From a virus: a DNA stretch of 64,000 nt. A program made the position numbers and the translations under genes. Shown in pieces: positions 33,118-59,766 of this stretch (position 1 is its first letter; each line of letters starts with the position of its first letter). Under the pieces are notes generated by a model. It was not told the origin of the DNA, searched no databases, and saw only the letters and a program-made list of their open reading frames with translations. The DNA lies in the UHGV virus genome UHGV-0294963. One strand, written 5' to 3'.

Positions 33118-33176
33118 GCTTAAATGCAGTGATTTACACTATATAAATGGTGTTGCGTAGTTGCTGCATTTAAGCA
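33118..33176 (+). terminator. Conserved inverted-repeat element (TGCTTAAATGCA, 35 nt, TGCATTTAAGCA)
   Basis: 12-bp arms identical to the elements at 52743 and 59704. Sits between a gene stop and the next gene start. Confidence 0.5.
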
Positions 33177-33205
33177 TTTATTGTGTCAATCAAAGATAAG
33201 AGAGG

Positions 33206-33556
33206 ATGAATTCTATGTACAGACAGAATTGCGTAGTAAAGATTGAAGGTGTACCTAGAAATGAACCGGTCGACCTGTATATCATGAAAAGAGGTGCTGA
33301 CTTGATTGCTGCAGCAGTTACTTCCAATACCTATCAAGCTACCCATATCGCTGTAGAGAGTGGTATCAGAGATGTAGAGGATTTTACTAGACTATGCACC
33401 GAACATGAGTTTAATCTGGTAAAAGATTCCGAAACACCTAAAAAGTACAATCTTGAGTTTACTCTAGATATGATTGATAATCTATGTTCTATCGATGAAT
33501 ACCCATGTACGATAGCTGAGCTACCAGAGCAGTTGGTGGATTGCTTGGCTGGGTAG
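33206..33556 (+). CDS. Hypothetical protein (116 aa)
   Basis: ORF with SD AGAGAGGATG. Confidence 0.4.
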   Translation: MNSMYRQNCVVKIEGVPRNEPVDLYIMKRGADLIAAAVTSNTYQATHIAVESGIRDVEDFTRLCTEHEFNLVKDSETPKKYNLEFTLDMIDNLCSIDEYPCTIAELPEQLVDCLAG

Positions 33557-33590
33557 AACTTCGAAATACAATTAGAAATTGTGTTATAAT
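33557..33590 (+). promoter_or_regulatory. Candidate promoter (AACTTCGA, 20 nt, TGTTATAAT)
   Basis: Recurrent architecture upstream of the flap nuclease gene. Confidence 0.45.
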
Positions 33591-33655
33591 TTAGATAACA
33601 TAAAATATACGACTTTTATACGACTTTTATGGGAATTTTTATAAGGAGGAATCTA

Positions 33656-34534
33656 ATGAAATATCTGGTAATTGATACCTACGCTTTATGTTTCAGAGCT
33701 CTATATGGTTATCCTGAATTGACTAATCGTAAGGGAGAACCTACGTCAGTAATTATCGGTTTCTTTAAGCAGTTTCTTAGTCGTGTCCACGCAGTAGAGG
33801 ATTACTATCCAATATTTGTCACTGACATGCCTGGTTCTGCAGACATTCGAAAAGAGCTGTATCCTGACTACAAAGCCAATCGGACAGCAGCTGACCCGTC
33901 GTTCTATGACCAGGTTGACTTTGTTCTTGAGCTTGGTGCGCTTATTGGTACAGTATATAAACAACCAGGCAGAGAGGCTGATGACCTAGCAGGTGCATTC
34001 GTAGAGCGTTACGCTGCTACGAATGACATAACACTACTTACGGTTGACGCTGACTGGTTGCAGCTTCTTGGTAAGAATGTCAAGGTACTTCAACTTAAAA
34101 CCAATGGTGTACACGTTCTTTGGGACGACGCTCTGTTCTTCGCAGAGAAGAAGATTACACCGAAACAATTGATTGACCTCAAGGCAATCGTTGGTGACGG
34201 CTCAGACAATATTCCTGGTGTTAAGGGACTCGGTGAAGCAACTGGTGTTGAGTTACTTCGCGAATTTGGTACGGTGGATGATATCTATGCAAATATCGTT
34301 AAGGTTACAACCAAGCGTAAGATTCAGCAGAAACTTATCGAGAACGAAGAGCTGGTCCGACGAAATATTAAGCTGGTATCATTGAACACCAGTGTAGATA
34401 CATGGACAGAGCCACAGACTGTAGTCACCGATGAAACTATCGACAAGTTCATAGATAGATTTTCTGAGAGAACAGATTCTCAAGAATTGACCAACCTACT
34501 TGGTGTATATCTACAACGTCGTAAACCAAGATAA
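33656..34534 (+). CDS. 5'-3' exonuclease / flap endonuclease (Pol I N-terminal-like, FEN family)
   Basis: LVIDTYALCFRALYG...LTN..GEPT matches the 5'-nuclease N-terminus. GDGSDNIPGVKGLGEATGVELL is the H3TH motif. Start at MKYLV follows SD AAGGAGG. Confidence 0.85.
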   Translation: MKYLVIDTYALCFRALYGYPELTNRKGEPTSVIIGFFKQFLSRVHAVEDYYPIFVTDMPGSADIRKELYPDYKANRTAADPSFYDQVDFVLELGALIGTVYKQPGREADDLAGAFVERYAATNDITLLTVDADWLQLLGKNVKVLQLKTNGVHVLWDDALFFAEKKITPKQLIDLKAIVGDGSDNIPGVKGLGEATGVELLREFGTVDDIYANIVKVTTKRKIQQKLIENEELVRRNIKLVSLNTSVDTWTEPQTVVTDETIDKFIDRFSERTDSQELTNLLGVYLQRRKPR

Positions 34535-34548
34535 GGGGGTAAGTTGTC

Positions 34549-35070
34549 ATGTCGCCTATCGAGTATCAAGCAGCAAAAGTTCTAGGCGTAATCCATGCCA
34601 AACCTCATGATTATCAGGATGCTTTAGAGCTACCTAGGAACAAAGCTGCTCGGTATGGTGACCTGATGTCTTATGTTGGTATGTATGTTCAAGGTATATT
34701 GCTCATAAATGATTCCTTCGACCACATCACATCAGAGACGATGCCTGCTTATGAATCATGCTGCAATATAATACGAAAGCAGGATTTAGCATACGCAAGA
34801 CCAATCCCTCAGCAAGTCAGAATCAAATTCCAATTATACCTGCGTGCAAATCTTCCTGTAGAATGGCTTTCGAGTTTTCTACGAGAATACAGATTACATC
34901 TTTTCGGTAATGTAATGTGGGTAGACCAGAAGAAGCGAGAATACGTTACTGACTTTAACGATAAAAGGTTTTTGCATAAGGTTAAAGGTATCTGGGCTTT
35001 AGATTATGCACCACTTACCGATTACAGTCGTTACGAAGAAATAAAGAATATTTTAGACAACACCGCATAA
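34549..35070 (+). CDS. Hypothetical protein (173 aa)
   Basis: ORF with SD AAGGGGGTAAG. Confidence 0.4.
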   Translation: MSPIEYQAAKVLGVIHAKPHDYQDALELPRNKAARYGDLMSYVGMYVQGILLINDSFDHITSETMPAYESCCNIIRKQDLAYARPIPQQVRIKFQLYLRANLPVEWLSSFLREYRLHLFGNVMWVDQKKREYVTDFNDKRFLHKVKGIWALDYAPLTDYSRYEEIKNILDNTA

Positions 35071-35100
35071 GTTCGTTATAAACTCATGTGGTGTTATATA
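35069..35100 (+). promoter_or_regulatory. Candidate promoter (AAGTTCGT, 18 nt, TGTTATATAAT)
   Basis: Recurrent architecture upstream of the first GT-like paralog. Confidence 0.4.
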
Positions 35101-35141
35101 ATATAATAGTAAATAAAACACCGTTATCAAGGAGGATTGTT

Positions 35142-36047
35142 ATGGGAAAAATTATGTACGGTACCATTTCATATATACCGCCAGATGCAACTCGAAAGTC
35201 GATGCGTATTGCAAATCACAGAAAGCAGCTAGACTGGCTGTCAACATTTCTTACATCTGATGATTTGTACCTCCGCGTCGAGAGTGCTTGGGGCGACGAT
35301 TCTGAGTATGATAAGCTGCATGACGTTCCTTTCGAGATTACCAGTATTCAAGTACCAGCAGCGTACCCAGGAGCAAATCGCAATTATCTTCTGAAAAAAC
35401 TCTATGCTTCAGATTATGATTGGCTTGTAATCATGGACGATGACCGCGCTTTGTACCCATATTTTAACGGTGAGGCATTCTTCACTAAAGAGCTCAAGGG
35501 ACCTGATGGAGATAGACTTGCCAGAGAAGGAACCCTCATTAAAGGTTTACACCCAATGGTAGAGCCGTTCAAGCGTCAGTGCATTGAGTTTCCTAAGAAA
35601 AAGGAAGCTTGGTTTATGACCAAGAGCTCACCACTCGGTTTTCTTCAGATTGCTTGCATTCCTAATCTGGTAAAATATGGCTATGAACCGATTTATATGA
35701 ACGGCGAAACCAGTTGTATGGAAGGAACAGCACCTGAGGATTTACAGTTCGAGCTCGATTGGGTTCTTGCAAAACACGGGATGGCTTGTAATAAAAACCT
35801 AATTATTAAAGAATTTGGTGGAGAGAACCAGAGCTCGTTATACCAGAATAAGGAGCATCGCCGTAGAGTCGAGGCATATCACAGACAGTGGGTATCTGAG
35901 TACCTCAAGCAGAAAAATCCTAGAAACAAAGCACTCTGGGAAAAGAAAACTTTGAATGCTCGTCGTAATACGTTTGACCCTACTCATCTGTTCTTAAGGC
36001 GTGAAGTTGCTTGGGACGACGCTTGGGATTCTATAATCGAGAAGTGA
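35142..36047 (+). CDS. Putative GT-A-fold glycosyltransferase-like protein, paralog 1 (DXD motif IMDDDRA)
   Basis: Start at MGKIMYG after SD AAGGAGG. Homologous to the next gene along its whole length (YRVESAWG, LYASDYDWL, DDDR, QYLKQ..PRN). Confidence 0.4.
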   Translation: MGKIMYGTISYIPPDATRKSMRIANHRKQLDWLSTFLTSDDLYLRVESAWGDDSEYDKLHDVPFEITSIQVPAAYPGANRNYLLKKLYASDYDWLVIMDDDRALYPYFNGEAFFTKELKGPDGDRLAREGTLIKGLHPMVEPFKRQCIEFPKKKEAWFMTKSSPLGFLQIACIPNLVKYGYEPIYMNGETSCMEGTAPEDLQFELDWVLAKHGMACNKNLIIKEFGGENQSSLYQNKEHRRRVEAYHRQWVSEYLKQKNPRNKALWEKKTLNARRNTFDPTHLFLRREVAWDDAWDSIIEK

Positions 36048-36056
36048 GGTGAGTCT

Positions 36057-36995
36057 ATGAAACCCGAAGGTAATTTTATGGTTGGTATTATATCATATAT
36101 GCCAGAAACAGATGCAGGTAAGCAGCGTATTCCACTACACAAGGAACAGTTACGCTGGCTAGAGTGGCTTGCAGAAAAAGTACAGCATTCCTTCCCGATT
36201 TACCGAGTTGAGAGTGCGTGGGGACCTACAGCAAAAGCAGAGCTCACGTCTACTATGCCCATTATACCTATCGAGGTAGAAAAGCATACCTGCGCTGTAA
36301 ATAGAAACTTTCTCCTTGAAAAGTTCTATGCTTCAGATTATGACTGGTTGTTCCTTCTTGATGATGACCGAGTATTCTACGACCATTATAGATATTGGGA
36401 GTGGTTTGATGACCTTGCCACTCCGAGGGTGCTTTGTATGTGTCAAGAAGGCTACATCGTGTCTTGCATACTTCCTATGTACGAGCCGTTCAAGAAAGTC
36501 AATTATGAATGGCCTAATCATGAAACACACTGGTACTTTAGCAAAGACCCCATCAAAGGCAGTCTGCAGTCGTGTTTTATCCCGAACATTAAGAAATATA
36601 AGAACACAGAAGTTTACTTCGACAAACATACGGCTGCTCAGCTTGGTGAGCCTCCTGAGGATACGATGTTTCAGTTGGATTGGATTAAGGCAGGAGGTAG
36701 GTGCGTTCGCAATCGTTATCTCATAGCCAAGGAAGTAGGTCAGTCAGCGGGTGAAAAGAGTTTAATCTACGCTTCCCTAGAAGACCGACGCAAGGTTGAG
36801 GAAGGACATAATCTTTGGTTCACTCAATACCTCAAGCAGCTCTTTCCTAGAAATCCTAGATGTTGGGAGCGTCGTGGCTTTAACGCCAGATTTAATCCTG
36901 AATTCAAAGAGTTAATTCCCAGAACAAATTCTTATGTATTTGAATTGCCTGATTTGCCGCGTAATATCGTGAAAGAGATGAAGCAGAATGAATGA
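36057..36995 (+). CDS. Putative GT-A-fold glycosyltransferase-like protein, paralog 2 (DXD motif LLDDDRV)
   Basis: Tandem paralog of 35142..36047. SD GAGGTGAG. Confidence 0.4.
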   Translation: MKPEGNFMVGIISYMPETDAGKQRIPLHKEQLRWLEWLAEKVQHSFPIYRVESAWGPTAKAELTSTMPIIPIEVEKHTCAVNRNFLLEKFYASDYDWLFLLDDDRVFYDHYRYWEWFDDLATPRVLCMCQEGYIVSCILPMYEPFKKVNYEWPNHETHWYFSKDPIKGSLQSCFIPNIKKYKNTEVYFDKHTAAQLGEPPEDTMFQLDWIKAGGRCVRNRYLIAKEVGQSAGEKSLIYASLEDRRKVEEGHNLWFTQYLKQLFPRNPRCWERRGFNARFNPEFKELIPRTNSYVFELPDLPRNIVKEMKQNE

Positions 36996-37368
36996 GACAA
37001 TTCAATATCAGAATGAGGTTTATGATGCGACGCACATTAGAGCAGCATTCCGTCTGTATATGCAAGAAACACACCCCAAAGTAAATTCCAAGACTTTGAA
37101 GACCTACTGTACAGATGCTATATTTATCTGGGCTCAGCTACCAGACCGGTGGGTCTGGGACATAGTAGACGGCGGTGAGTATTCTGACGAAGACTGGAAA
37201 GTAAAGTTGCAGACGTACATCCGCAGAGATATAACAGCGGCAAGAACGTGTCCTGATAAGGATGCTCGTAGTTATACCAAGCATTTCTGGCAACTGATAT
37301 TGTTCTTAAGAATATTTCAGCATATCGTGAAGGGTCGATTGGCAGTACCAAGACACATAGGAGAGTGA
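36988..37368 (+). CDS. Hypothetical protein (126 aa)
   Basis: ORF overlapping the previous stop by 8 nt. Confidence 0.35.
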   Translation: MNETIQYQNEVYDATHIRAAFRLYMQETHPKVNSKTLKTYCTDAIFIWAQLPDRWVWDIVDGGEYSDEDWKVKLQTYIRRDITAARTCPDKDARSYTKHFWQLILFLRIFQHIVKGRLAVPRHIGE

Positions 37369-37374
37369 TACAAT

Positions 37375-39316: not shown

Positions 39317-39319
39317 GAT

Positions 39320-41257: not shown

Positions 41258-41259
41258 TT

Positions 41260-42483: not shown

Positions 42484-42489
42484 TAGTAG

Positions 42490-43758: not shown

Positions 43759-43760
43759 AA

Positions 43761-46984: not shown

Positions 46985-47018
46985 AACTTCGTTTCTGTAC
47001 CTGTACTATGTTATAATA
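46985..47018 (+). promoter_or_regulatory. Candidate promoter (AACTTCGT, 20 nt, TGTTATAAT) embedded in the CTGTACCT...AGGTACAG inverted repeat
   Basis: Recurrent architecture upstream of 47084. Confidence 0.45.
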
Positions 47019-47980: not shown

Positions 47981-48000
47981 GTAAACCATAAGTCACTTAT

Positions 48001-48040: not shown

Positions 48041-48070
48041 TATCTCCTATGTAGTTATAAAGTTATATAA

Positions 48071-48110
48071 GATTTACTACCGTGTGATATGCGTTAGCGT
48101 GCTACATGGT
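48071..48110 (+). repeat. Conserved roughly 40-bp element copy 1 (GATTTACTACCGTGTGATATGCGTTAGCGTGCTACATGGT)
   Basis: About 36/40 identical to 56857-56896. The core is shared with the inverted copy at 3531-3552. Confidence 0.55.
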
Positions 48111-48140
48111 TTATAACTTCGTGTGCGTGAACGAAATATG
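48108..48140 (+). promoter_or_regulatory. Candidate promoter (AACTTCGT, 19 nt, TGTTATAAT)
   Basis: Recurrent architecture, immediately 3' of the conserved 40-bp element. Confidence 0.45.
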
Positions 48141-48233
48141 TTATAATGTGTATACAATAAATCATTGTGTGTACTCTGGTTGTATTGATTGCAGATAGTG
48201 ACGACGTGATGAGAAAGTGAGGTGATACTGAGC

Positions 48234-48945: not shown

Positions 48946-50030
48946 AAGTTATTCACCTGGCTGACCTTCATATAGGTAAGCCATTTCACAAGAAAAGTCT
49001 GCTATTCGACCAGACCTATATGCTGAAAAATGTCCTGGATTTGATGGAATCTCAGAAAGCACATCTGGTTATTGCAGGCGATGTGTTCGATTCTGCAAAT
49101 CCATCAATCGACGCTCAGGAAGTGTTCGTATCCTTTATCAAGGAGGTCGTGAAACTCTGTGATGCGTATAATCTGACTACGATTATTATCGTTGGTAATC
49201 ACGATTCTAATAGACGTCTTGCTTTGTGGGAAGACTTTGTCGGTACTCGAGTTCATATCGTGAACGATACTGTTGAAATACTAATCGAGGGTATTCCGTT
49301 CTATGCAGTTTCTTTTGTAAAACCCACAATCGCACAGACGAAATTCAATCGCCCATTTGAGTCCTATAATGAGGCTTTTGAAGCATATCTGCCTGAAACA
49401 AATCGTGAGAATACAATTCTCATTGCGCATCAGACATTCGAAGGTTGCACTACCGGTTCGTCTGAAGCGATGTCGTTCTTTGATGATGCAGTTAGCAAGA
49501 GAATCGTTCAGGAATTCCCATTGGTAATGGCAGGTCACATTCATAAGAAGCAGAAGATAGGAAATATTTTCTATCCTGGTAGTCTTATGCCTTATGCTTT
49601 CGGTGATGAGTATGCAGGCGGTATTACAGTATGGGACATTAGTACAGGTACGGACGGTAAGCTCACAGCCGGTTCTTCTGTCTATCCTGTACATCTATAT
49701 CGTGAATTCCAGATTGTAAGAGGAGACCTTAAGCATTGTCTAGGTATCGCAGATACAGGAGCCTATATCAAGGTTGAGCTTGTCGATGAGAATGTACCAC
49801 TCGATGTGGCTTTACCTCAACTTCAGAATCATTTCAAGAATATGGTAACGGCTGTTTCTAAGATAACGGACGATTGGGAAGCCGACTTGAATAAACCAAT
49901 GGTTCAATTCGATTCAATAGAATCCGCTCTGGATAGCTTCTGTAATCAGATTGAAGTTCCAGTCCTGGAGTCTGAACAATTACGATTAGTGCAGGAGGTA
50001 GTTCATGAGATTACTGAAACTTCAAATTAA
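48942..50030 (+). CDS. sbcD: SbcD/Mre11-like nuclease (TTG start)
   Basis: Calcineurin-like phosphoesterase motifs IHLADLHIG, AGDVFD, GNHD, GHIH. SD AAGGAGGAGG. Confidence 0.85.
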   Translation: MKVIHLADLHIGKPFHKKSLLFDQTYMLKNVLDLMESQKAHLVIAGDVFDSANPSIDAQEVFVSFIKEVVKLCDAYNLTTIIIVGNHDSNRRLALWEDFVGTRVHIVNDTVEILIEGIPFYAVSFVKPTIAQTKFNRPFESYNEAFEAYLPETNRENTILIAHQTFEGCTTGSSEAMSFFDDAVSKRIVQEFPLVMAGHIHKKQKIGNIFYPGSLMPYAFGDEYAGGITVWDISTGTDGKLTAGSSVYPVHLYREFQIVRGDLKHCLGIADTGAYIKVELVDENVPLDVALPQLQNHFKNMVTAVSKITDDWEADLNKPMVQFDSIESALDSFCNQIEVPVLESEQLRLVQEVVHEITETSN

Positions 50031-52728
50031 GAACTTTATCAGTATCAAGCAAGCGTCTATCGACTTTGAGGAGCTGAATGACGGAGTATTTCTTATCTCA
50101 GGACCTACAGGTTCTGGTAAGTCATCGATGCTTGATGCAATCCACTGGGTACTGTTCGGCAAGACGCTGTCTTCCAACCGCGCAACGGTTACTAAAGAAA
50201 TCCGCAGTACATACGCACCAGCAAATGAGGATACCGTGGTTACTCTTACCTTCAATCAGGACAAGATTGATTATAAGGTAGTTCGCACACTCAAGAAAGA
50301 CGGCGGTACCGCTGTTCAGCTGTTCGCTCCTGGTATCATTTATGATAAGGTAAAGGAAGCGAATGAGCATCTGGAGAAGATTATCGGACTTACGGTTAAG
50401 CAGTTCGACCAGATGGTTATGCTAGAACAAGGTAACTTTTCTAAATTTCTACTTGCAGACTCTCGTACTCGTGCTGAGATTCTACGTGATATTTTTGATA
50501 CTCAACTATTCAAGGACATTGAATTAAGATTCAAAGATAGATGTGCTGATTTGAAGCAGACTATTCTTAATTCTACAGAGCTCGAGCAAAGTCTACTTCA
50601 AGGCGAGATGCTTGAAACTGTTCAGAGTCAGATTATGCTTACAGCTGAAACAATTCAAGAAGAGCAGGCTCGTCTTGATGAGCTGAAAGCAAGTCACAAA
50701 GCAGCCGAGGATATGCTACCAGACATGGTAGCATACGACCAGCAGTATGCTGTATATGCAAAAGCACAGAAGGAACTCGAACAGCTTGCAGCTCTCAAGT
50801 CAGAGGTTGAGGAGCTCTATAAAAAGCGAGACGTATATATGGCGTATGTCTCTGTTCTTGATTGGTATGCGTCTTACCATAAGACCAGGCAGGAGTATGA
50901 CAAGTGCGTAACTGATGAGGCTGATTATCAGAAGAGAATCGCCTCAGTGGTTGTCGATGAAGAACTTTCCGGTAAGGTTTCTGCATTACAAGCACGCCAA
51001 TCAGAACTGACAGCACAACTCGATGCGTTCGCTCAACTCGCTCGTCAGAAGGAGCAGCTTGATAGTTATTATCAGGAGATAGCTGGACTTGCTGATGAAA
51101 AGACCCACCTTGAAACCTGTCTGACCGCTGTTCAAGAAACCAAGGATAATCTTAAGATTAGGCTTGATACTCGACGTGACTTCGACCAGAAAAAGGCTGA
51201 GGTGATTGAGCGAGATAAAGCGAGAGCTCGTATGCAGCAAGACATTGAAGCTTTAGAAACGTTTATAGACAGTAATAAAGCAGTCTACTCAAAGCTACTA
51301 GCACGCAAACTTCTTGATATGAGTGAACCAGGTATTTGTCCCATCTGTGGTACTGTGTACACGGATGAGCACGTGTCGGTAGAAACCTCCGGTAGTAGCA
51401 TTGATTCTAAACAACGTGAATTGGAGACCAAGAAGAACCAGCTAGAAGGTCTCAGAGTTCAACTCGATAGTTTACCAGTGCTTCCGGAACCAGAGTGTAC
51501 TGAGGTAGCACCTTACAACGACCTTCTTACGCAGTGGAATACAACCGCAGCGAAATACAACGAAACACAATCTAAACTCTATGAGGTCGATAAGAAATTG
51601 GCAACATTAACCGGTGCCTCTGAAGCAGCTAAACGGGAGATTGCTAATATCGAATTGAAGGTAGCCAATCTAGTGGAAGTAGAACTTCAGCAAGAGCTTG
51701 ACCAGGTTAATGCTGAGTACAGCGAGCTCTGGGCTAAGGTTGATGATAACGAGATGGCTAAAAGAAGTCGCAACCTACTTGAAGGTTACCTCAGAAGTGT
51801 TCAAGATAAGATGAACACTCTTAAAGCTGAACTCGAGCGTCTGATGGCACTTCCTGAAGCTAAATCTGATGATGACGCAGAACTAAAAGCCGCTTTATCT
51901 TATGCAGACCGGGTAGACGATTATCGAGTTCATATCAATGATTATCTTTACAAAATTCAGCAATATGAAATGCTCAGAGATAATCTGCTATCTGTAGATG
52001 AACCTGTCAATCCACATCCTGGACATACTGCTGCGAGCGTCAGACAGCTAATCACAGATACAAATATCGGTATTGAAGAATCTGTCAGACGAATTGCAGA
52101 AGCACAGAATTCACTTGATGCCCGTAAAGAGTTGGTTAAGCGAGTATCTGATATCAGAGCTGAACGAGATAAAAATACCAAGGCTTATGACCAGCATATG
52201 TACCTTTATAACCTGTTATCTGGCAAGAACAGTTCTAAGATTTCATTCGAGACTTTTGTTCTGCACAGACAGCTTGAATGGATTCTGCAATCGAGTAATC
52301 AATATCTGCATACACTGTCGGCTGGTCAGTTCGAGCTTCAAGTTAAGTGGGAGTCATTGTCAGGTCGTACTCAAGGTGGTTTGGAAATTATGATTACAGA
52401 CCATTTCACAGGTAGCACTCGTCCCGCTCAGACATACTCAGGTGGTGAGCTATTTATGCTCAGCCTTAGTCTTAGCCTGGGATTGATGACTGCGATTGAC
52501 TCACTGTTCACTACAAGAGACTTGAACTTGCTGTTCGTAGATGAAGGATTCGGCACTCTTGATAGTGATTGCCTCAGTCGTACTCTTATGACACTTCGTG
52601 ACTTAAGAAATATCAAGAGTGTGGGAATAATATCACACGTTCAGGACCTCATCGACACGATACCGCAAGGATTCATAGTCGAGAAGACCGCAGCTGGTTC
52701 GAAGATAAAATTGTTCAAGAATATCTAG
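50005..52728 (+). CDS. sbcC: SbcC/Rad50-like SMC ATPase
   Basis: Walker A ISGPTGSGKSSMLDAI. Long coiled coil with central CPICG zinc hook. Signature and D-loop LFVDEGFGTLD. Confidence 0.85.
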   Translation: MRLLKLQIKNFISIKQASIDFEELNDGVFLISGPTGSGKSSMLDAIHWVLFGKTLSSNRATVTKEIRSTYAPANEDTVVTLTFNQDKIDYKVVRTLKKDGGTAVQLFAPGIIYDKVKEANEHLEKIIGLTVKQFDQMVMLEQGNFSKFLLADSRTRAEILRDIFDTQLFKDIELRFKDRCADLKQTILNSTELEQSLLQGEMLETVQSQIMLTAETIQEEQARLDELKASHKAAEDMLPDMVAYDQQYAVYAKAQKELEQLAALKSEVEELYKKRDVYMAYVSVLDWYASYHKTRQEYDKCVTDEADYQKRIASVVVDEELSGKVSALQARQSELTAQLDAFAQLARQKEQLDSYYQEIAGLADEKTHLETCLTAVQETKDNLKIRLDTRRDFDQKKAEVIERDKARARMQQDIEALETFIDSNKAVYSKLLARKLLDMSEPGICPICGTVYTDEHVSVETSGSSIDSKQRELETKKNQLEGLRVQLDSLPVLPEPECTEVAPYNDLLTQWNTTAAKYNETQSKLYEVDKKLATLTGASEAAKREIANIELKVANLVEVELQQELDQVNAEYSELWAKVDDNEMAKRSRNLLEGYLRSVQDKMNTLKAELERLMALPEAKSDDDAELKAALSYADRVDDYRVHINDYLYKIQQYEMLRDNLLSVDEPVNPHPGHTAASVRQLITDTNIGIEESVRRIAEAQNSLDARKELVKRVSDIRAERDKNTKAYDQHMYLYNLLSGKNSSKISFETFVLHRQLEWILQSSNQYLHTLSAGQFELQVKWESLSGRTQGGLEIMITDHFTGSTRPAQTYSGGELFMLSLSLSLGLMTAIDSLFTTRDLNLLFVDEGFGTLDSDCLSRTLMTLRDLRNIKSVGIISHVQDLIDTIPQGFIVEKTAAGSKIKLFKNI

Positions 52729-52742
52729 AAGAATAGCTGATA

Positions 52743-52803
52743 CTGCTTAAATGCACGGGACTGCTTGTAAAGTTATACACGCAACTTCGTAGCATTTAAG
52801 CAG
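52743..52803 (+). terminator. Conserved inverted-repeat element (CTGCTTAAATGCA, 36 nt, GCATTTAAGCAG)
   Basis: Identical 12-bp arms. Sits between the sbcC stop and the polA promoter. The -35-like AACTTCGT lies inside the loop. Confidence 0.5.
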
Positions 52804-52816
52804 TATCGTGTATAAT
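52783..52816 (+). promoter_or_regulatory. Candidate promoter (AACTTCGT, 20 nt, TGTATAAT) for the DNA polymerase gene
   Basis: Recurrent architecture 31 nt upstream of the polA ATG. Confidence 0.45.
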
Positions 52817-52846
52817 ATGTATATAAAATAAGGAGGTAACCATTAG

Positions 52847-55150
52847 ATGCCAAGACGAAGAATTGGACTACCACAGCGAGATAATGCACCTGCCGCTCCT
52901 GTGGAAATTCCAAAATCATTACAAAAGAAATCCAAACCAGTTAAAGATATGGATTCTATCATCGCTCAAGCAAAAGCGATGTCCGAAAAATATGCAGGTC
53001 AATATGAATGCGTAACTGACAAGGATGTTCTTATCGACTATATCGACACCATCATCAAAGAAAGAAGAACAGGTCTTGATACCGAGACTACTGGACTGGA
53101 TATTTTCCATGATTCTGTAGTCGGTTTCTCACTCTATGCTCCGACAAAGAAAGCAATCTATGTACCGATGCTTCATCTGTCAAGATTCACAGGTAAGGTT
53201 GACCTTTCGCAGCTTTCAGTTGAATTCTGTAGTCAACAGTTAGCTCGTCTTAATGACGTTAAGGAGTTGACCATCGATTACTTTAACGCACCATTCGATA
53301 TGAATGTGATTTGGTATTCGATGGGTGTAAAGCTCTGGGATATCTGCTCGAACGATGCGTCGTTGATGATGCGTTTGCTGAACACCGAGCGTCACAGAAA
53401 CAACAACCTGAAGGACTTACACGCAGACTTCTGTTCACATACAACCAGAGGTCCTCGATTCAGTGAGTTGTTCCCTCCTGGAACATTCAATAGATGTCCT
53501 TATAAGTACACCAGCGCTTACGGTGCTCGAGATGCTGAGATGGCAAGTGAGCTTGTTGACTATGCTTACGGTGAACTAAGAAAGCCTGAGAATGCTGGTT
53601 TACTTAGAGTATGGGAAGATATTGAGCGCCCTCTCATCCCGGTACTTCTGCGTATGCGTGAGAAAGGTGTTCTTGTTGATGAGGCTAAGAGAGCTGAACT
53701 CATCGTCAAGTATCGCGAGAAGCTTGAGGAAGCAGAAAAAGATGTTATCCATGAGTATGAACCTTACATTCCCAAGATTAATCAGTGGAGAATGCGTTAC
53801 GGTAGAGCGAAGGGTAAGGTAATCGACATGCCAGTCAAAATAGGTTCTGAAGCTCAGCTGAAGATTCTTCTATTCGACATTATGGGATTGCCAAGACCTG
53901 AATCAGGTAAGGTTGATAAGAACGTTCTTAAAGACCTAGGAGTACCGATTGCTGGTGCAGTTCTGAGATACAGAGAAGCTAAGAAGCTACTGTCTACATA
54001 CCTTGAGGGTCTTGATAAGTTTATCCAGAAGGATGGTTGCGTTCACGGTGGTATTAAACAGCTTGGAGCTGATACAGGACGTACTTCAGCAGTAGACCCG
54101 AATATGCAGAACATCCCATCTCACAACAGAGAAATCAGAACGATGTACATTGCACGTCCCGGAAGGTATTTAATTTCATGTGACTATTCTGGTCAGGAAC
54201 CGCGTCTGACAGCTTCGTTGTCTAGGGACCCGAAAATGATTGAGACATATCAGAAGGGCCTTGACTTATATTCGATGATTGCTGCTGTTGCTTTCAACAC
54301 CACATATGAAGAGTGCCTTGAAAAGAGACCGAACGGTGAGCTGTACTTAGAAGGTAAGGAGCGTAGAGGACAAGCGAAGACGATAGTGTTGGGAATTTGT
54401 TATGGTCGACAAATTCCGTCTATCGCAGAGCAGCTGAAGTGTAGTGTAGACGAAGCTCAGCTTATCTACGATAAAGTTACCAAGAGTTTTCCGGGTCTTC
54501 TTCGAGCTCAAGATGAATCTGCTGAAATGGCTCATACCAAGGGTTATGTTGAAACACTCTGGGGCAGACGAAGACACTTGTCGGTTATGATGCACGACCC
54601 CTATGAATTCAGATATAAGGACGGGTGTAATCCGGATTTTGACCCGTTCGATTTAGATAACTGTAATGACACGAACGAGTTATCAGAAGCGACTAAGAAA
54701 AAGTATATCAAGGACCTGCTGGGGTTCAAGTACCGTCGTGACAAGAATGAGTATATCGAAGGGTTGAAAGCTCAAGGAATTGAGGTGTCTGACTATTCAT
54801 ATCAGATAAGTGAGCAGAGTAGAAAGTGCTTGAATGCCAGAATTCAAGGGTCGGCTGCTGATATGAGTAAGCTCGCAATGATTGCGATTGATAAAGATGA
54901 GCGGCTAAAGAAGCTCGACTGTTATCTACTTCTGATGATTCATGATGAGGTTATATGTGAATGCCCTATCGAAAACCACAAAGAAGCAATCACCTATATT
55001 AAAGAAGATATGGAAAAGGTAGCATCACATCTTCCGGTACCGTTTAAGTCAGACCCTGAAACAGCGGTGTGCTGGTATGGAGCTGAGGTTGATATAGATG
55101 AAGACGGTGAGCTTGAGGACGGAGGCGATGATGGTGAAGAGAGTGCATAA
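52847..55150 (+). CDS. Family A DNA polymerase (Pol I-like, with 3'-5' exonuclease domain)
   Basis: Exo I LDTETTGLD. Motif A DYSGQEPRL. Motif B RRGQAKTIVLGICYG. Motif C LLMIHDEVICE. Confidence 0.9.
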   Translation: MPRRRIGLPQRDNAPAAPVEIPKSLQKKSKPVKDMDSIIAQAKAMSEKYAGQYECVTDKDVLIDYIDTIIKERRTGLDTETTGLDIFHDSVVGFSLYAPTKKAIYVPMLHLSRFTGKVDLSQLSVEFCSQQLARLNDVKELTIDYFNAPFDMNVIWYSMGVKLWDICSNDASLMMRLLNTERHRNNNLKDLHADFCSHTTRGPRFSELFPPGTFNRCPYKYTSAYGARDAEMASELVDYAYGELRKPENAGLLRVWEDIERPLIPVLLRMREKGVLVDEAKRAELIVKYREKLEEAEKDVIHEYEPYIPKINQWRMRYGRAKGKVIDMPVKIGSEAQLKILLFDIMGLPRPESGKVDKNVLKDLGVPIAGAVLRYREAKKLLSTYLEGLDKFIQKDGCVHGGIKQLGADTGRTSAVDPNMQNIPSHNREIRTMYIARPGRYLISCDYSGQEPRLTASLSRDPKMIETYQKGLDLYSMIAAVAFNTTYEECLEKRPNGELYLEGKERRGQAKTIVLGICYGRQIPSIAEQLKCSVDEAQLIYDKVTKSFPGLLRAQDESAEMAHTKGYVETLWGRRRHLSVMMHDPYEFRYKDGCNPDFDPFDLDNCNDTNELSEATKKKYIKDLLGFKYRRDKNEYIEGLKAQGIEVSDYSYQISEQSRKCLNARIQGSAADMSKLAMIAIDKDERLKKLDCYLLLMIHDEVICECPIENHKEAITYIKEDMEKVASHLPVPFKSDPETAVCWYGAEVDIDEDGELEDGGDDGEESA

Positions 55151-55751
55151 GGTGGATATCAGTAGCAATAGTGGTATAAACTCTGTATCCTTAACATTGA
55201 ATATGACATATTCAGATTTCAAGGCTTGGATGTTGGGTTTAGCAGCTATGGGTGATTTATCTAGATTAGCTACCAAGGAGGTTGAGGACGTGCTTATTCA
55301 CGTCCTCGCCACTATGGAAACCACACCTTGGTATCTGAAACACAAGGTGTGGAGAAGGATAAACGATGATGGGGTTCTGAAAGGATACGTAGCGGCTATA
55401 GATAACCTTAGGCTTAAGCAAAAACCAGAACTTATAGAAGCTTCGGTACAAATTGCACACCGAAGTGAGTGGTTAGCTAAGCTAGGTAAAGAGCGTGAAG
55501 AGAAATATAAAGCTAATCTAGAAAAGCAGATAGAAAATCTATGGCGGATAGGTATAGTCGAGGTGTGGTCTGAAGATTGGTTTGAAGATATCGAGGATTA
55601 TCTAGAGCACATTCAGCGTTTGGGATACCACGTTTTCTGGAGCCAAGCTCGCAGAAATAATCAAGGTATGACTCAGCAGGTCTATTACATAACACTCAAC
55701 CCACAGTTTCGGCATATGAGCGAATGGAAAAGGAGGAAAGATAATGGCTGA
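55131..55751 (+). CDS. Hypothetical protein, paralogous to the next gene in its C-terminal half
   Basis: Shared block EDWFEDIEDYLEHIQRLGYHVF...RNNQG versus EQWFSGIEQFLSDLQEMGYHVY...PNNQG. The start is uncertain (55098 or 55131). Confidence 0.4.
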   Translation: MVKRVHKVDISSNSGINSVSLTLNMTYSDFKAWMLGLAAMGDLSRLATKEVEDVLIHVLATMETTPWYLKHKVWRRINDDGVLKGYVAAIDNLRLKQKPELIEASVQIAHRSEWLAKLGKEREEKYKANLEKQIENLWRIGIVEVWSEDWFEDIEDYLEHIQRLGYHVFWSQARRNNQGMTQQVYYITLNPQFRHMSEWKRRKDNG

Positions 55752-56106
55752 CTTTTATCAGAAAGGAGATTGTTTTCCTGAGCTAAAGACGGCGAGCGAA
55801 CAACGAGCTAACGGTGATGCGTGGCGAGAACAGTTACAAATTCAGATTTGGTGCCAGAAGCGTGACGAGATATACCTAGCCATCAATGAGCTATGGAAGA
55901 TTAAAGGTCTTGCTTGGGTAAATATCTGGGAAGAGCAGTGGTTTTCTGGTATTGAACAGTTCTTAAGTGACCTTCAGGAGATGGGTTATCATGTCTACAT
56001 TGGCGATTCAGGTCGCCCTAATAATCAAGGTAAGGTTCAGAAAAGATACTGCGTGTACCTAGAAGCCTTACCGGACACAGAGGAGTGGAGTATAGATGGA
56101 CAGTAG
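55744..56106 (+). CDS. Hypothetical protein (120 aa), paralog of the previous gene
   Basis: SD AAAGGAGGAAAG. Conserved GYHVY...NNQG block. Confidence 0.4.
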   Translation: MADFYQKGDCFPELKTASEQRANGDAWREQLQIQIWCQKRDEIYLAINELWKIKGLAWVNIWEEQWFSGIEQFLSDLQEMGYHVYIGDSGRPNNQGKVQKRYCVYLEALPDTEEWSIDGQ

Positions 56107-56431
56107 AAACAATATAATGAATCGAGACTGGTCAAAAGAGTTCATTACCAAGATGGAAAAGGCTATCGAGACTTCTCACTATAAGTACGGTTGGATGTCT
56201 GATACCTATCCTGAGCTTGCTCAAGCAGCAAGGTGCATACAGGAGCGATTAGACCTCTATAACAAGACGCACAACCTAGATTATCTGGTAGATATCGCCA
56301 ATTTCGCAATGATTGAATACAAACACCCTTCTTATTCGGACGCAGCTTATACGCCACAGGACAGTGACAAATCACCAGGTCTTGCGGGAGGAATTTCACA
56401 TAAGGAGTTGATGGAGCAGTATGACCGTTGA
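56096..56431 (+). CDS. Hypothetical protein (111 aa)
   Basis: SD GAGGAGTGGAG. Confidence 0.35.
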   Translation: MDSRNNIMNRDWSKEFITKMEKAIETSHYKYGWMSDTYPELAQAARCIQERLDLYNKTHNLDYLVDIANFAMIEYKHPSYSDAAYTPQDSDKSPGLAGGISHKELMEQYDR

Positions 56432-56714
56432 CGACAGACTAGCTAAGATTGGATTTAGTAAGGTGTATGAAGATGTTCGGCGTGTTCACTATGAGAGGTA
56501 TGACAAAGAGTATAGATATTATCACACGGTAGTGATAGAACGTCGAAGTGTCTGGAATGAATTCCGACTGCAGTCTTATGATGAGAACCTCATCGATAAT
56601 AAAAGCATTGGTAATACTAACGTGGCATTATCTACTGCCGAACTAAAGCTATTTCTTAAAAAGATGAAGCAGAAAGAGTACGAATATGTGAAACACAGAA
56701 TGATACGGATTTAA
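56421..56714 (+). CDS. Hypothetical protein (97 aa)
   Basis: SD AAGGAG. Last gene of the plus-strand block. Confidence 0.35.
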   Translation: MTVDDRLAKIGFSKVYEDVRRVHYERYDKEYRYYHTVVIERRSVWNEFRLQSYDENLIDNKSIGNTNVALSTAELKLFLKKMKQKEYEYVKHRMIRI

Positions 56715-56728
56715 GCCACCAGAGAGAA

Positions 56729-56768
56729 ACACGGTAGTGTCGTTGTCGACACTACCGTGTTTTTATTT
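56729..56768 (+). terminator. Rho-independent terminator (stem ACACGGTAGTGTC / GACACTACCGTGT, 6-nt loop, TTTTTATTT)
   Basis: Perfect 13-bp stem plus U-tract, 15 nt after the last plus-strand gene. Confidence 0.75.
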
Positions 56769-56856
56769 GTAGTTATATGATACATAAATCACGTTGCTAC
56801 ACAACGCACGCTAATGATTTGCGTGTGGTTCACACGAATCACATAAACTTATACAT

Positions 56857-56896
56857 GATTTACTACCGTGTGGTATGCTTTAGCGTGCTACGTGAT
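56857..56896 (+). repeat. Conserved roughly 40-bp element copy 2 (GATTTACTACCGTGTGGTATGCTTTAGCGTGCTACGTGAT), at the convergent block junction
   Basis: Near-identical to 48071-48110. An additional inverted half-copy (CGCACGCTAATG) lies at 56797-56808. Confidence 0.55.
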
Positions 56897-59104
56897 TTAA
56901 TTGAGCACTAAGAAGTGACCTGCACTGTTCTCAGCTTTGAATGCCTGAATATCAGCTACAGGCTTCCAGTCGATGAACGTACCGTCGTTTGCTAGAAGCA
57001 TTTGCATTAGAGTTTCCTTAGCGATGTCTTCAGAGTCTCCAGGAACGACAATCCCGTCAAAATTGTCTTCTGGGAGCATACACTCAGCGACAAAACCAGG
57101 GCCTTGTGCTTGAGTGTCTCTTAGGTCTTCATAACCGAGTCCATATGCAGCGAAGTCACCTTCCTCAAAAACTCGATTTGTGCCTGTATCTGCAGCTGCA
57201 GGTTCACCGACTATACCTACGCCGCCGAGTGCATTGCTGTTAAAGCTGAGTGATGAGTTAAGACCAGCAGCATCTTCTGATTTCTTCATATGTTCCTGTC
57301 TTTTCTTAAATGCTGCTTTGAGCTTGTCTAGAGCAGATGCTCCTTTGTTTGCGTCACAGCTGGTATCTGAATTAGCATGCTTAGATGCGTCTAGATTGTC
57401 TTCGTCACCGTGAAGCATATCGTAAGAAGCCGCTGCCTGCTTGATATAGTTGACAGCATCGCTGCCCTTCATTCTCTTATCCAAGCTGCCTGATTCGGTA
57501 CGGATAATGCTGTAATCCTTGAATAAGGTTACATAGACAGTTGCGTTTGCCAAGTCACCTGAGGCAATCATTTCATTATCATTGTATCCCGCAGGTGCTA
57601 CGAAAGCACCGATATCGCCGACTTTGACTTCAACGCTGGTAGTATCAGGATTCTTCTCAATTGCACGAGTAAGAGCAGCTTGGAGCGACTCGTCGGTGAG
57701 CTCATCGGTAAGCACTTCTGTAGTGTTTTCGTCAAGTGAGGCATCAAGGTCCTCCCAGTTGACATCTTTGTACTTTCTTGCGATGTACTTCTGGATGTCA
57801 GGTTTAACCTTCATCGCTTCTTTTCTTCCGATGTACTTATTGAGAAGCAGCCAGGTTACGATAGACGCATCCAGCTTATATGCTTCTTGAGGAGTGATGA
57901 GCTTCTGCTCGACCATAGGCTGAAGAAGTTTCGCATTTTTTCTGTAAGCATCGATAGGCTTAATTGTTCCTGCCTTGACGCCTTCCAGAATTGCGGCAGG
58001 GTCATCAGGAATATTCTCTGCAACGGAGTACAATCCTTTCTTAATTAGCTTATCCTTTAGTGCTGGGTCAACCTTAACAGCATAGTCAGGTGAAATATAA
58101 CCCTGTTGTACCAGCCAAAGAATCCTATCAGGAGCTCTACGTGCAACGATTTCTGGTGCAATCAAGCCCTTGGTGACAAGGTCTTTAGCAAGTGTCGGCT
58201 TAGCTTTGAGAACCTTTTCTGCATCGACATAACCCTTCGTGACCAAACGCATAACACCAGGTGTGCTCATACGGTCGAGGTCAGACTTTTTAAGTTCTGC
58301 GATGCCGTCTGCGAGGAAGTACTCATAGCAGCGAGCTGGAGGATTCTGCAGCATACTATCGACCATATCAGACAAAAGACCTGCAAGCCAGTAAGCTGTA
58401 TGCTGGTCTCTCTTGTTCGCATTGTCACCGTTTGCTGTATATCCATACATACCCTGCTCAACATCGATGAATCTTCCCGACCTATGGTAGATTAGATGAG
58501 CCTCAGAGTTAGGATTGTAGTTAGGTTCGAATGACCAATCATCTACACCGCTCTCATCAGTCTCAGCACCCACCTCAACCGTGAGTGAAGACTTGGCTAC
58601 CCACTGGGTAGTGCCGAGTTTTTGAGAAGTGTACATCAAGGTTGACAGAATTAGGTCATCACCTTTGTTCTCACGGAAGGCGGTATAACGGAATCCGGGA
58701 GGAAGGTCAACAGCTTCTTGTGCAGCTCTGAATACGTTCTTGACACGCACTGCTACACCAGGGTCAAGTGCAGAATTAAGCCCAGTGCTCTGACCTTTGA
58801 GTGAATTATAGAAAGCATCGATGCGTCTGCAGCACTCAAGATTGGTATCAAGCCAATCACCGAGGTCTTCTGCACACATATCAGGGCTTTCGATGTCATA
58901 CTGCGGAACATATGCAAATCCTTCTTCGGTAGCTTCACTATTCTCTGTCGGAGTATAAATCTCGACAGCAGTACCGTCAGGAAGATTGATTGTAAAGCCT
59001 ACCTTTGAGTCATCAATGATAGTACCTTCTGTTCTGCAGCAGTTGAGTGTTCGGGCATTTGCAATGCCCATCGTTTTGCACATTTCTGAAATAAATACGT
59101 TCAT
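56897..59104 (-). CDS. Virion-associated protein with internal roughly 30-aa tandem repeats (735 aa)
   Basis: Four to five degenerate repeats (LVTKGYVDAEKVLKAKP / LVQQGYISPDYAVKVDP / LIKKGLYSVAENIPDDP / MVEQKLITPQEAYKLD). Within the right-hand structural block. Confidence 0.4.
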   Translation of the reverse strand: MNVFISEMCKTMGIANARTLNCCRTEGTIIDDSKVGFTINLPDGTAVEIYTPTENSEATEEGFAYVPQYDIESPDMCAEDLGDWLDTNLECCRRIDAFYNSLKGQSTGLNSALDPGVAVRVKNVFRAAQEAVDLPPGFRYTAFRENKGDDLILSTLMYTSQKLGTTQWVAKSSLTVEVGAETDESGVDDWSFEPNYNPNSEAHLIYHRSGRFIDVEQGMYGYTANGDNANKRDQHTAYWLAGLLSDMVDSMLQNPPARCYEYFLADGIAELKKSDLDRMSTPGVMRLVTKGYVDAEKVLKAKPTLAKDLVTKGLIAPEIVARRAPDRILWLVQQGYISPDYAVKVDPALKDKLIKKGLYSVAENIPDDPAAILEGVKAGTIKPIDAYRKNAKLLQPMVEQKLITPQEAYKLDASIVTWLLLNKYIGRKEAMKVKPDIQKYIARKYKDVNWEDLDASLDENTTEVLTDELTDESLQAALTRAIEKNPDTTSVEVKVGDIGAFVAPAGYNDNEMIASGDLANATVYVTLFKDYSIIRTESGSLDKRMKGSDAVNYIKQAAASYDMLHGDEDNLDASKHANSDTSCDANKGASALDKLKAAFKKRQEHMKKSEDAAGLNSSLSFNSNALGGVGIVGEPAAADTGTNRVFEEGDFAAYGLGYEDLRDTQAQGPGFVAECMLPEDNFDGIVVPGDSEDIAKETLMQMLLANDGTFIDWKPVADIQAFKAENSAGHFLVLN

Positions 59105-59119
59105 GCTACTCTACCTCCT

Positions 59120-59668
59120 TTAAGACATAGGTCCCAGGTAAATTGCACGAGAAACTTCAAGTGTGCAGTTGAACTTGACAATGTCCGAAGACTTGTAGTC
59201 AGCATCGCCGAAACCTAGCGATGAAATCCAGACGCCTCTCCACTTCCAGATACGAGAGAAGTTAGGGTCTCCATCACCAGAATCACGAAGAACATAAGCG
59301 TCCTTCATATAGCGGCTTGGTCTTCCCACCTTTTCTGTAGCAGCGTCGAATACCTGCTGGTCAAGGTCAACCAAAGCCTGCTGGCTGTCCAATCCAACGT
59401 ATCCCTTGATAGTCCAAGATACGTTCTGGTATGTAGGCTTACCTGCAAACTTCAAGCTGTCATTGCCGTAGAAGTCTTCGATTACGCCGTAACCTTTCTT
59501 GAACTCACCCAGGGAGTCTGTAGATAGCGTCAAGATATCCGAAAATGAAGCAAGCTCAGAAGAGTTGACATTGTATAGTCTAATCTCGAACTTGTCTTTC
59601 AGATATGGCATATAGTCGTCCTGACCAATCATGTGGTCAGTGCCATAATACATTCTGTCCATCCACAT
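59120..59668 (-). CDS. Hypothetical virion protein (182 aa)
   Basis: ORF in the structural block. Confidence 0.35.
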   Translation of the reverse strand: MWMDRMYYGTDHMIGQDDYMPYLKDKFEIRLYNVNSSELASFSDILTLSTDSLGEFKKGYGVIEDFYGNDSLKFAGKPTYQNVSWTIKGYVGLDSQQALVDLDQQVFDAATEKVGRPSRYMKDAYVLRDSGDGDPNFSRIWKWRGVWISSLGFGDADYKSSDIVKFNCTLEVSRAIYLGPMS

Positions 59669-59703
59669 AGACTCGTCCTCCTTTTTAATTGATTTTAACT
59701 GTT

Positions 59704-59766
59704 CTGCTTAAATGCACGAAGGTACAGTGTATAAATTTACAGCCTAACCGACGCAGCATTTAAGCA
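59704..59766 (-). terminator. Conserved inverted-repeat element (CTGCTTAAATGCA, 39 nt, GCATTTAAGCA)
   Basis: Identical arms to 33118 and 52743. Sits between the HU-like gene stop and the next gene. Confidence 0.5.

Follow-up and report, generated by a model that had tools for sequence, protein, structure and literature searches.

What is the function of a short inverted repeat that recurs between the genes of a phage genome with its arms almost unchanged? The question is raised by UHGV virus genome UHGV-0294963, of which a stretch of 64,000 nucleotides (the window) was analysed here, and in which an initial annotation had pointed to three intergenic repeats of this kind. Our analysis revealed five such elements in the window, E1–E5, which together with their counterparts in related viruses constitute the E family: hairpins with an invariant sequence core, placed at the ends of genes and in most instances joined to a promoter. 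Their structure, conservation, covariation, position and cassette context are described directly in what follows. We propose, and would give the proposal an even chance, that they act as sense-strand RNA hairpins that end or process transcripts at cistron boundaries, as RNase III-type sites, 3' stabilisers and in some cases terminators, within hairpin–promoter cassettes.

The repeats are real and far beyond chance. Across the whole window, the arm TGCTTAAATGCA with at most one mismatch occurs ten times, against 0.42 expected from shuffles, and eight of the ten matches pair into the inverted repeats E1–E5; the remaining two are isolated, one-mismatch occurrences within genes (7076–7087 and 60575–60586). 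The exact pattern TGCTTAAATGCA-N-TGCATTTAAGCA is found a single time, at E1, while a mismatch-tolerant scan that leaves arm position 8 free recovers E1–E5 and one three-mismatch match in a gene (0.77 in shuffles). All five copies are intergenic, intergenic DNA being about 6% of the window, and lie between genes of the same strand, 0 to about 30 nt past the upstream stop codon and 30–72 nt ahead of the next start. Flanking genes are co-directional wherever both can be called, in the window as well as at the loci of relatives. The earlier description of the repeats as following a gene stop and preceding a promoter or gene start holds for all five, each having a stop codon ahead of it and, past it, a promoter-like site or a ribosome-binding site.

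E1 (33117–33176, + strand) has two perfect 12-nt arms (33117–33128 and 33165–33176) within an extended hairpin of about 33107–33188, and separates genes 32582–33106 and 33206–33556; no convincing promoter lies 3' of it, and its tail is weakly U-rich (UUUAUUGUGU). E2 (52744–52802, +), between an SbcC-like gene (50005–52728) and PolA (52847–55150), has the arms TGCTTAAATGCA and AGCATTTAAGCA, with A.A at position 12, and its hairpin extends to 52738–52808 through the outer stem GATAC/GTATC. E3 (59705–59766), located between the HU-like gene (59779–60054) and the tail tube gene (59120–59668), has its sense on the − strand, where it reads TGCTTAAATGCT...TGCATTTAAGCA with U.U at position 12 and an extended hairpin at 59697–59774. 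The claim that these three share identical 12-bp arms is correct for E1, but the second arm of E2 and E3, AGCATTTAAGCA, agrees at 11 of 12 positions, and the coordinates first given were shifted by one base. The other two copies had been undervalued. E4 (15775–15834, −), directly 3' of the stop codon of gene 15839–16396 and followed by gene 14818–15702, has both cores intact, is mismatched (A.G) at position 8 and pairs poorly in its other parts; it was rightly noticed as a copy, but its span had been drawn to 15839 and it is not degenerate, matching in full once position 8 is free. E5 (24843–24902, −), which has a canonical terminator on one side and on the other a CTTCG-type promoter that precedes gene 23769–24770 (clamp loader), had been taken for a half site at about 24838; it is in fact complete, and the single substitution in its core makes a G.U pair in the sense RNA.

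The initial annotation envisaged a short stem with a long variable loop. Its spacing of 35–39 nt is close to the 35–38 nt found between the 12-nt arms of E1–E3, but these spacers fold as stem rather than as loops, so that E1–E3 form more than 25 bp with apical loops of 4–6 nt. Computed with short flanks, the RNA fold of the sense strand has −32.4 kcal/mol for E1 (z-score −5.1), −37.1 kcal/mol for E2 (−7.5) and −34.1 kcal/mol for E3 (−5.8). The antisense values are −22.0, −35.3 and −24.0, those of E1 and E3 being weaker by about 10 kcal/mol because several of their pairs are G.U. Over the 44 distinct copies that we collected, the hairpin is about 75 nt in size, with a median of 29 bp paired and apical loops mostly of 3–6 nt. 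E1–E3 thus attain or exceed a length of about two turns of double-stranded RNA (20 bp); E4 and E5 are weak folders.

The hairpin is built from three parts: a variable, covarying outer stem, an invariant core helix (UGCUUAA-n-UGC / GCA-n-UUAAGCA) and a variable upper stem-loop of about 38 nt. At the DNA level the core reads T-GCTTAA-n-TGC, paired with GCA-n-TTAAGC-A, and comprises ten fixed positions within an 11-bp stretch. Position 8 of the arm accepts all four bases on either side and is paired (A-U, C-G, U.G, G.U) or mismatched depending on the copy, and at position 12 the bases do not pair in 22 of 31 aligned copies, A.A being the usual combination; the helix is hence divided by internal mismatches at positions 12 and 8, as are the single-cut substrates of T7 and SP82. 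The outer stem of 5–6 pairs covaries between sites (GGTTTT/AAAACC, GGTACT/AGTACC, GATACT/AGTATC, GGAATT/AATTCC). In the alignment, column pair 7–73 is AU in 11 copies and UA in 11, and pair 8–72 is UA in 11, CG in 8 and UG in 8; 80.6% of cells are paired, versus 31–42% when the partner column is slid. All 44 copies have an interior of 37–40 nt, and in 32 it is 38 nt long, the search having permitted 28–48 nt. We do not take this narrow range as proof of constraint, since it is also compatible with few insertions or deletions after common descent.

How is this organization maintained among relatives? A scan of IMG/VR for both arms returned 22 loci, or 50 with position 8 free. Once unrelated chance matches were removed, the 44 distinct copies remained, distributed over about 15 viral contigs, nine of them 111–166 kb long, and ten orthologous sites, namely E1–E5 and five sites beyond the window (F–J). 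With five copies in the window and at least 7–8 per long related contig, the family amounts to about ten per genome. Orthologues, given here by locus number, were assigned to E1 (L142, L143/L001, L004–L016), E2 (L023–L031), E3 (L032–L039, L264–L270), E4 (L136, identical in type, and L137–L141, with a decayed 3' arm) and E5 (L072–L075, L077, L081).

To avoid circularity, loci were also fetched by protein homology alone. At such motif-independent loci the element precedes polA in seven of eight relatives, L030 having a different hairpin, and the tube gene in 15 of 15 close relatives; nine more distant tube loci (tube 85–88% identical) instead have unrelated ordinary GC hairpins, three of the nine with a T-run. 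Ordinary terminators at the tube site of distant relatives and another hairpin at polA in L030, all at the same position, amount to functional replacement. Ahead of the clamp loader, five relatives have the element, L077 has variant arms and L078 a half site, and in L076 element and promoter are missing together, as a cassette. In L071, L079 and L080, one of which is the closest relative, an extra open reading frame ending ...GWKRGWKG overlaps the clamp-loader start and replaces the terminator–hairpin–promoter region; it may be the insertion of a mobile (homing-type) gene.

Mean pairwise identity at the E3 site is 0.94–0.95 in the arms, compared with 0.60 in the interior, 0.63–0.68 in the outer stem and 0.76 in the upstream coding DNA; at the E5 site the respective values are 0.92–0.95, 0.71, 0.50–0.58 and 0.77. 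Because the arms exceed coding DNA, interior and outer stem alike, the core is the best-conserved part of the region, among relatives that span 58–86% protein identity. It is kept as sequence, and the remainder, at most, as pairing. This bears out the earlier suggestion that sequence and not structure alone is conserved, the arms being 92–97% identical between relatives at loci fetched without the motif. Outside this group of viruses the element has no evident counterpart in the sources consulted: Rfam at gathering thresholds and a tRNA scan returned nothing over the whole window, and the arm sequence matched only unrelated primers in the literature. A relaxed pattern occurs at 120 or more loci of bacterial genomes in unrelated taxa, against a chance estimate of about 180 (596 Gb x 21 gap lengths / 4^18), and among the bacterial matches listed there were no relatives of window proteins except two weak clamp-loader-like matches. 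The bacterial matches are thus at chance level, and the repeat is not one carried by hosts, to the extent that one genome per species can show.

The second component of the proposed cassette is a promoter of unusual form. The pattern CTTCG-N17-23-TAWAMT matches 14 times in the window versus 1.1 expected, 13 of the 14 being intergenic and on the sense strand; typically AACTTCG is followed after 20–21 nt by a TG-extended TATAAT, and examples away from the elements are found at 33559–33590, 46987–47017, 48117–48147, 27507–27537 (−) and 30295–30326 (−). The upstream box is unlike the sigma-70 −35 hexamer and lies about 5 nt further upstream. Judged from its sequence, such a displaced, non-canonical box suggests a phage activator or a modified sigma factor.

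A promoter follows or overlaps seven of the ten sites (E2, E4, E5, F, G, H and, weakly, E3), and E1, I and J have none. The promoter-like CTTCG-N21-TATAAT at 52785–52816 (+) overlaps E2 in such a way that its CTTCG box belongs to the upper stem and its spacer is taken up by the 3' arm; a weak CTTCG-N19-TAAAAT at 59692–59721 (−) overlaps the 3' arm of E3. CTTCG-type promoters are located just 3' of E4 (15725–15756, −), upstream of 14818–15702, and just 3' of E5 (24802–24833, −), upstream of 23769–24770. Immediately upstream of E5, at the end of the RuvC-like gene, is an intrinsic terminator (24910–24949, −; stem CACAGGTGAAC/GTTCACCTGTG plus UUUUUAUCUU) that is kept in L072–L077. Among the sites of relatives, G and H present hairpin, U-tract and CTTCG-type promoter in series, and F has the promoter TTGCTT-N18-TATAAT. 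The stems of these three are GC-closed at the base and are followed by 5.8–7 U in 10 nt, compared with 0–4.4 at the other sites. The window copies have 3–5 T in the 10 nt past the stem and lack the combination of U-tract and GC-closed stem by which terminators are recognized, and E2 and E3 were not reported by a consensus terminator scan; that they are not simple intrinsic terminators had been anticipated correctly. From the 3' arm to the CTTCG box the distance ranges from overlap (E2) through 8–10 nt to about 17 nt or more, and this variability implies that there is no fixed operator geometry.

Other hairpins accompany these promoters. Many CTTCG-type promoters have a small hairpin over the box or spacer. 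A second intergenic repeat family, with the core ATGCGTTAGCGTGCTAC(G/A)TG, occurs at 48057–48113 (+), 56843–56899 (+) and 3531–3610 (−); two copies are 88% identical, the hairpin has about 11–13 bp (7 bp in the third copy) with several G.U pairs, a GUUA or UUUA loop and UUUAU after it, and an AACTTCG promoter begins directly past 48113. This family and other small hairpins precede or adjoin other CTTCG-type promoters. Between the sheath and HU genes, at 60055–60145 (−), is a long hairpin without U-tract (GATGTGCGTCTGTA...TACAGACGCACATC, with an inner GAACG/CGTTC stem); unrelated to the E family in sequence, it may have the same role. Two readings of the arms as promoter parts were discarded. 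The TGCTT within the arm recalls the MotA box of T4, but TGCTTAA stands at an inconsistent 16–20 nt from a −10-like hexamer, not at 11–13 nt, and no MotA domain was found among the window proteins. Arms serving as facing promoters for a phage sigma factor would be convergent and 40 bp apart.

At which level does the element act? The sense strand is the more stable in eight of ten site groups. Five point changes within cores were identified at the motif-independent loci (L142 at E1, L023 at E2, L268 at E3, E5 of the window, and L077), and all five give G.U in the sense RNA, none A.C. At position 8, pairing is restored as C-G in L032 and L265, compared with A.G in L034. We consider action at the RNA level roughly twice as likely as duplex-DNA recognition.

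We infer RNA-level action, cleavage and the reading of the core by a protein, and propose the following model. As transcription reads through from the upstream gene, the hairpin would form at or near the 3' end of the upstream message. Where a U-tract follows, as at F, G and H in the relatives, it would terminate transcription; where none does, which is the case for each of the five copies in the window, the interrupted helix, some 30 bp long, would most likely be cut by a double-strand-specific endoribonuclease of the RNase III type, and on one side only, to go by what is established for bacterial RNase III and the T7 and SP82 substrates (PMC1935012). The upstream message would thereby retain a hairpin that protects its 3' end and be separated from the downstream one. 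The promoter attached to most copies would then restart transcription, hairpin and promoter forming one cassette, and the invariant core would be the recognition surface of the acting protein, either host RNase III or a phage factor. An RNase III-type reading fits the anatomy, with its long interrupted intercistronic helix, sense-favouring wobble pairs and bubble at position 12.

A number of observations weigh against this model. The advantage of sense over antisense is modest, and mixed within the E1 group. The G.U bias comprises five events only and could be mimicked by a non-template C-to-T mutation bias, with which the sense-strand skew of G over C in the window is compatible. E4 and E5 fold no better than shuffles (z-scores −1.5 and −0.2), yet E4- and E5-type copies keep both cores, and at the E5 site of relatives the antisense strand folds better, with outer and upper-stem mismatches of the A.C type in the sense strand. 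Position 8 is unpaired in 9 of 31 aligned copies, about a third of the distinct copies. E5 has a normal terminator ahead of it, which seems to make another 3'-end signal superfluous. Identical signals would be expected if this strand formed the hairpin as single-stranded DNA, with G.T pairs tolerated. Finally, RNase III is weakly sequence-specific, and the ten invariant positions exceed its known preferences.

That RNase III preferences seem too loose for the core leaves room for a phage factor. The core, at a near-constant 38 nt from the partner arm, could be the docking site of a dedicated, clade-specific, sequence-reading factor, a proposal that we regard as tentative and on balance unlikely; the reader could be an endoribonuclease encoded by the phage, a protein acting in termination or antitermination, or one that binds hairpins or cruciforms, for example the HU-like protein. 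The explanations considered here and below are not mutually exclusive.

Could the elements instead be selfish or recombination-prone repeats, similar to transposable elements of the miniature inverted-repeat type (MITEs) or to promoter-early stem-loops (PeSLs), whose ends serve a transposase, a recombinase or gene conversion and whose effects on transcripts are secondary? Their history lends this idea some substance. Orthologous sites are patchy, being without the element in L030 and L076, occupied by the open reading frame in L071, L079 and L080, halved in L078 and decayed in L137–L141; in L076 the promoter is absent along with the element, and the whole family is limited to one clade. The E4-type unit GGTTTT...AGTGCG is present in inverted orientation at the E5 site of the alignment. 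The upper stem of E3 in the window shares the 15-mer TGTAAATTTATACAC with E2 of the closest relative (L023), and differs from its orthologue in L017 at about 14 of 38 interior positions between nearly identical flanks. To judge by this pattern, the E3 interior is probably the product of copy-to-copy conversion, and its CTTCG box, unique to this genome in comparison with L017/L033 and L023, probably came by conversion from an E2-type copy. Patchy presence, the inverted unit and the shared 15-mer together imply gain, loss and inversion of copies and, probably, conversion of one from another; the same behaviour is known from PeSLs and Correia elements (PMC2839356, PMC4122927, PMC2649163). The marks of transposition are nevertheless absent from the material compared: there is no target-site duplication, the element flanks being inverted-complementary rather than direct repeats; no clean empty site, element-less sites in relatives showing replacement; and no transposase-like domain among the 58 window proteins scanned. 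Arms of 12 bases are also short for homologous exchange, and conversion would homogenise interiors, which are yet 55–70% alike. At orthologous sites that stay fixed, the core has remained under purifying selection across the protein divergence given above, which indicates a function for the phage. We hold it to be improbable that the elements are primarily selfish or recombination-prone, about as much so as the dedicated factor.

Somewhat less probable still is that the elements are duplex-DNA sites, in which a repressor, an insulator or an HU-like protein binds two inverted 11-bp cores 48 bp apart and controls a promoter or DNA architecture, the hairpin being incidental. Such sites would account for the strict retention of sequence rather than pairing, for the survival of both cores in weakly folding E4- and E5-type copies of several relatives, for the independent variation of positions 8 and 12 in the two arms, as between half-sites, for the spacer of near-constant length, and for the promoter adjoining seven of ten sites. 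The initial annotation had also proposed binding of the HU-like protein. An HU-family gene does adjoin E3, and one is present between sheath and tube only in the element-carrying clade: in L040–L042 (sheath 58%, tube 85% identical) the tube gene directly follows the sheath gene, the three distant tube loci with a checkable upstream region have no HU gene there, and relatives without HU at this position have no element there either. This adjacency at one copy is the sole link, and we do not uphold the proposal, given covarying complementarity beyond the arms, variable promoter distance and the lack of an integration host factor (IHF)-type consensus in or beside the elements on inspection by eye. 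HU/IHF-type dimers cover about 35 bp, while the cores lie 19–29 bp from the centre. More generally, a duplex site requires no pairing beyond the arms, yet 5–6 outer pairs covary and the upper part pairs; promoter distance is not fixed, and E1, E3, I and J are without a convincing promoter; all five core substitutions are of the G.U type; and plain terminator hairpins occupy the same position in distant relatives.

Least probable of all is that the elements are plain intrinsic terminators or 3' stabilisers whose shared stem is a trace of recent duplication, without any sequence reader, for although F, G and H combine a GC-closed base, a U-tract and a following promoter, and distant relatives have ordinary terminators at the same position, the window copies lack a qualifying U-tract, E2 and E3 escape the terminator scan, E5 comes after a real terminator, and descent alone is insufficient to explain a core that is invariant while its surroundings, coding DNA included, diverge.

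The phage itself is a large myovirus, of which the window covers a part, with tail sheath (60146–62809) and tail tube genes on either side of the HU-family gene and a replication and repair complement of PolA, SbcC, SbcD, an SNF2 helicase, DnaB, a DnaG-like primase, a Dda-like helicase, clamp, clamp loader, a RuvC-like resolvase and a flap endonuclease. Among cultured phages, 20 kb of the window had no DNA-level match by megablast. The closest cultured homologues of PolA and the clamp loader, at 36–44% identity, belong to phages of Streptococcus, Clostridium and Bacillus (Firmicutes), and the sole match of the sheath is Bacillus phage SP-15 (25% identity). At 42–3410 (−) lie genes for QueC (42–749), a QueF-like protein (739–1248), a QueA-like Queuosine_synth protein (1251–2486) and a Vut_1/YhhQ-type transporter (2508–3410). 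Together they make up a 7-deazaguanine precursor pathway of the type found in phages such as Streptococcus Dp-1 (PMC6884629), which is also the closest cultured source of the PolA and clamp-loader homologues. By analogy, the DNA of the present phage may carry a 7-deazaguanine modification; a DpdA-type transglycosylase was not seen in the window.

Other features of the window deserve mention. Amid large unannotated genes, the 203-residue product of 9736–10347 (−) contains sigma-70 region 2 (E 1.5e-7) and is a candidate for a sigma factor of the phage. The tandem paralogous genes 35088–36047 and 36057–36995, without family assignment, share an 82-nt stretch of 72% identity (repeat D2). At the switch of coding strand and of the sign of the GC skew, a divergent intergenic region of 726 bp (30175–30900) has two CTTCG-type promoters directed leftward, a strong TTGCTTGTATGTTATAAT promoter directed rightward and an AT-rich part containing T-runs; it is a candidate control region or replication origin. 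Within gene 26489–27448 (−), tandem or near-tandem copies of CCCCAACCCTGCTG(A/C)GGAGCTTGATTCTGA at 26518–26741, spaced at 60 nt and 97% identical, fall in coding sequence and hence represent a repetitive, low-complexity protein segment.

What is the relevance of such a family? Repeated regulatory hairpins show how a phage genome is divided into transcription units, and the E family offers a first operon-boundary map for a gut- or rumen-type myovirus lineage of about 150 kb without a cultured relative. If a dsRNA or hairpin element keeps its sequence, and not its shape alone, while genomes diverge, a protein that recognizes the helix by its sequence is implied; among bacteria this is uncommon, and a portable module for processing or termination could come of it. 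If a dedicated factor exists, the roughly ten copies would constitute one regulon of switchable operon boundaries that times read-through from replication to structural genes; should they be no more than RNase III sites or terminators, they are ordinary and mainly of value for annotation.

Which known systems does the E family resemble? The substrates of RNase III in T7 and SP82 are interrupted stems with a one-sided cut (PMC1935012), and in the T7-like vibriophage VIB04 there are dispersed palindromes that are similar to one another and resemble the RNase III site of T7 (PMC11707656). The sites R0.3–R1.3 of T7, those of SP82, which are cut by Bacillus subtilis RNase III, and those of VIB04 share with the E family long, mismatch-interrupted intercistronic hairpins, which in the E family would likewise belong to polycistronic messages, present as several similar copies within a genome. 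The E family differs from them in having no sequence similarity to them, an unrelated host and phage lineage, a stricter core and some U-tracts, and its cleavage is a prediction.

The PeSLs of T4-type phages are repeated intergenic composites in which a stem-loop that stops transcription from upstream is combined with a sigma-70-like promoter. Often the stem-loop covers the −10 box or occupies the stretch from there to the −35 box (PMC2839356), an overlap of the kind seen at E2 and E3, and PeSLs are linked to insertions, deletions and replacements between related genomes (PMC2839356, PMC4122927). Mutually similar repeated copies combining stem-loop, sigma-70-like promoter and ribosome-binding site are found here at E2, E4, E5, F, G, H and, weakly, E3, and an association with insertions, deletions or replacements may be suggested, among the five sites compared, by the cassette-less L076, the open reading frame of L071, L079 and L080, and the other hairpin of L030. 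The stems of PeSLs, however, are short and GC-rich with a loose consensus (for example A3-4G3-loop-C3T3-4), unlike the stem of about 30 bp with an AU-rich invariant core described here; the present promoters have the unusual upstream box (AACTTCG, 20–21 nt before TATAAT), three to four sites are without promoter, and the phage is not T4-like. The cassette organization nonetheless carries the PeSL idea of terminator–promoter units that can be shuffled beyond the T4-type phages.

Rho-independent terminators likewise place a hairpin directly past the stop codon, and F, G and H share their GC-closed base and U-tract; in the E family, however, the stem is two to three times longer, has an AU-rich middle and is conserved in sequence, and the U-tract is lacking at seven of ten sites. 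Repetitive extragenic palindromes and bacterial interspersed mosaic elements (REP/BIME) are short extragenic palindromes present in many copies and either orientation, which stabilise the upstream mRNA. In contrast to REP/BIME and their associated RAYT, the E family has no GTAG/CTAC head and only about ten copies per genome, in a phage, and no RAYT (Y1 transposase) Pfam domain was found in the 58 window proteins.

Correia elements are 100–155 bp long and duplicate a TA target. These elements of Neisseria, also called nemis, are small and intergenic and have conserved inverted repeats at their ends around a variable interior, and terminal inverted repeats are found here too. They differ in being bacterial and in having 26-bp terminal repeats and an IHF site, whereas the E family showed no target duplication, IHF consensus or sign of transposition. 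Correia transcripts form hairpins that are bound by RNase III and are either cut or protected, and the elements supply promoters and are polymorphic (PMC2649163).

By sequence or lineage, then, the E family belongs to none of the T7 and SP82 sites, the PeSLs or the Correia elements, and it lacks the defining features of intrinsic terminators (in its window copies), of MITEs and of the REP/RAYT system. Most likely it represents a so-far undescribed form of a regulatory device known from other phages.

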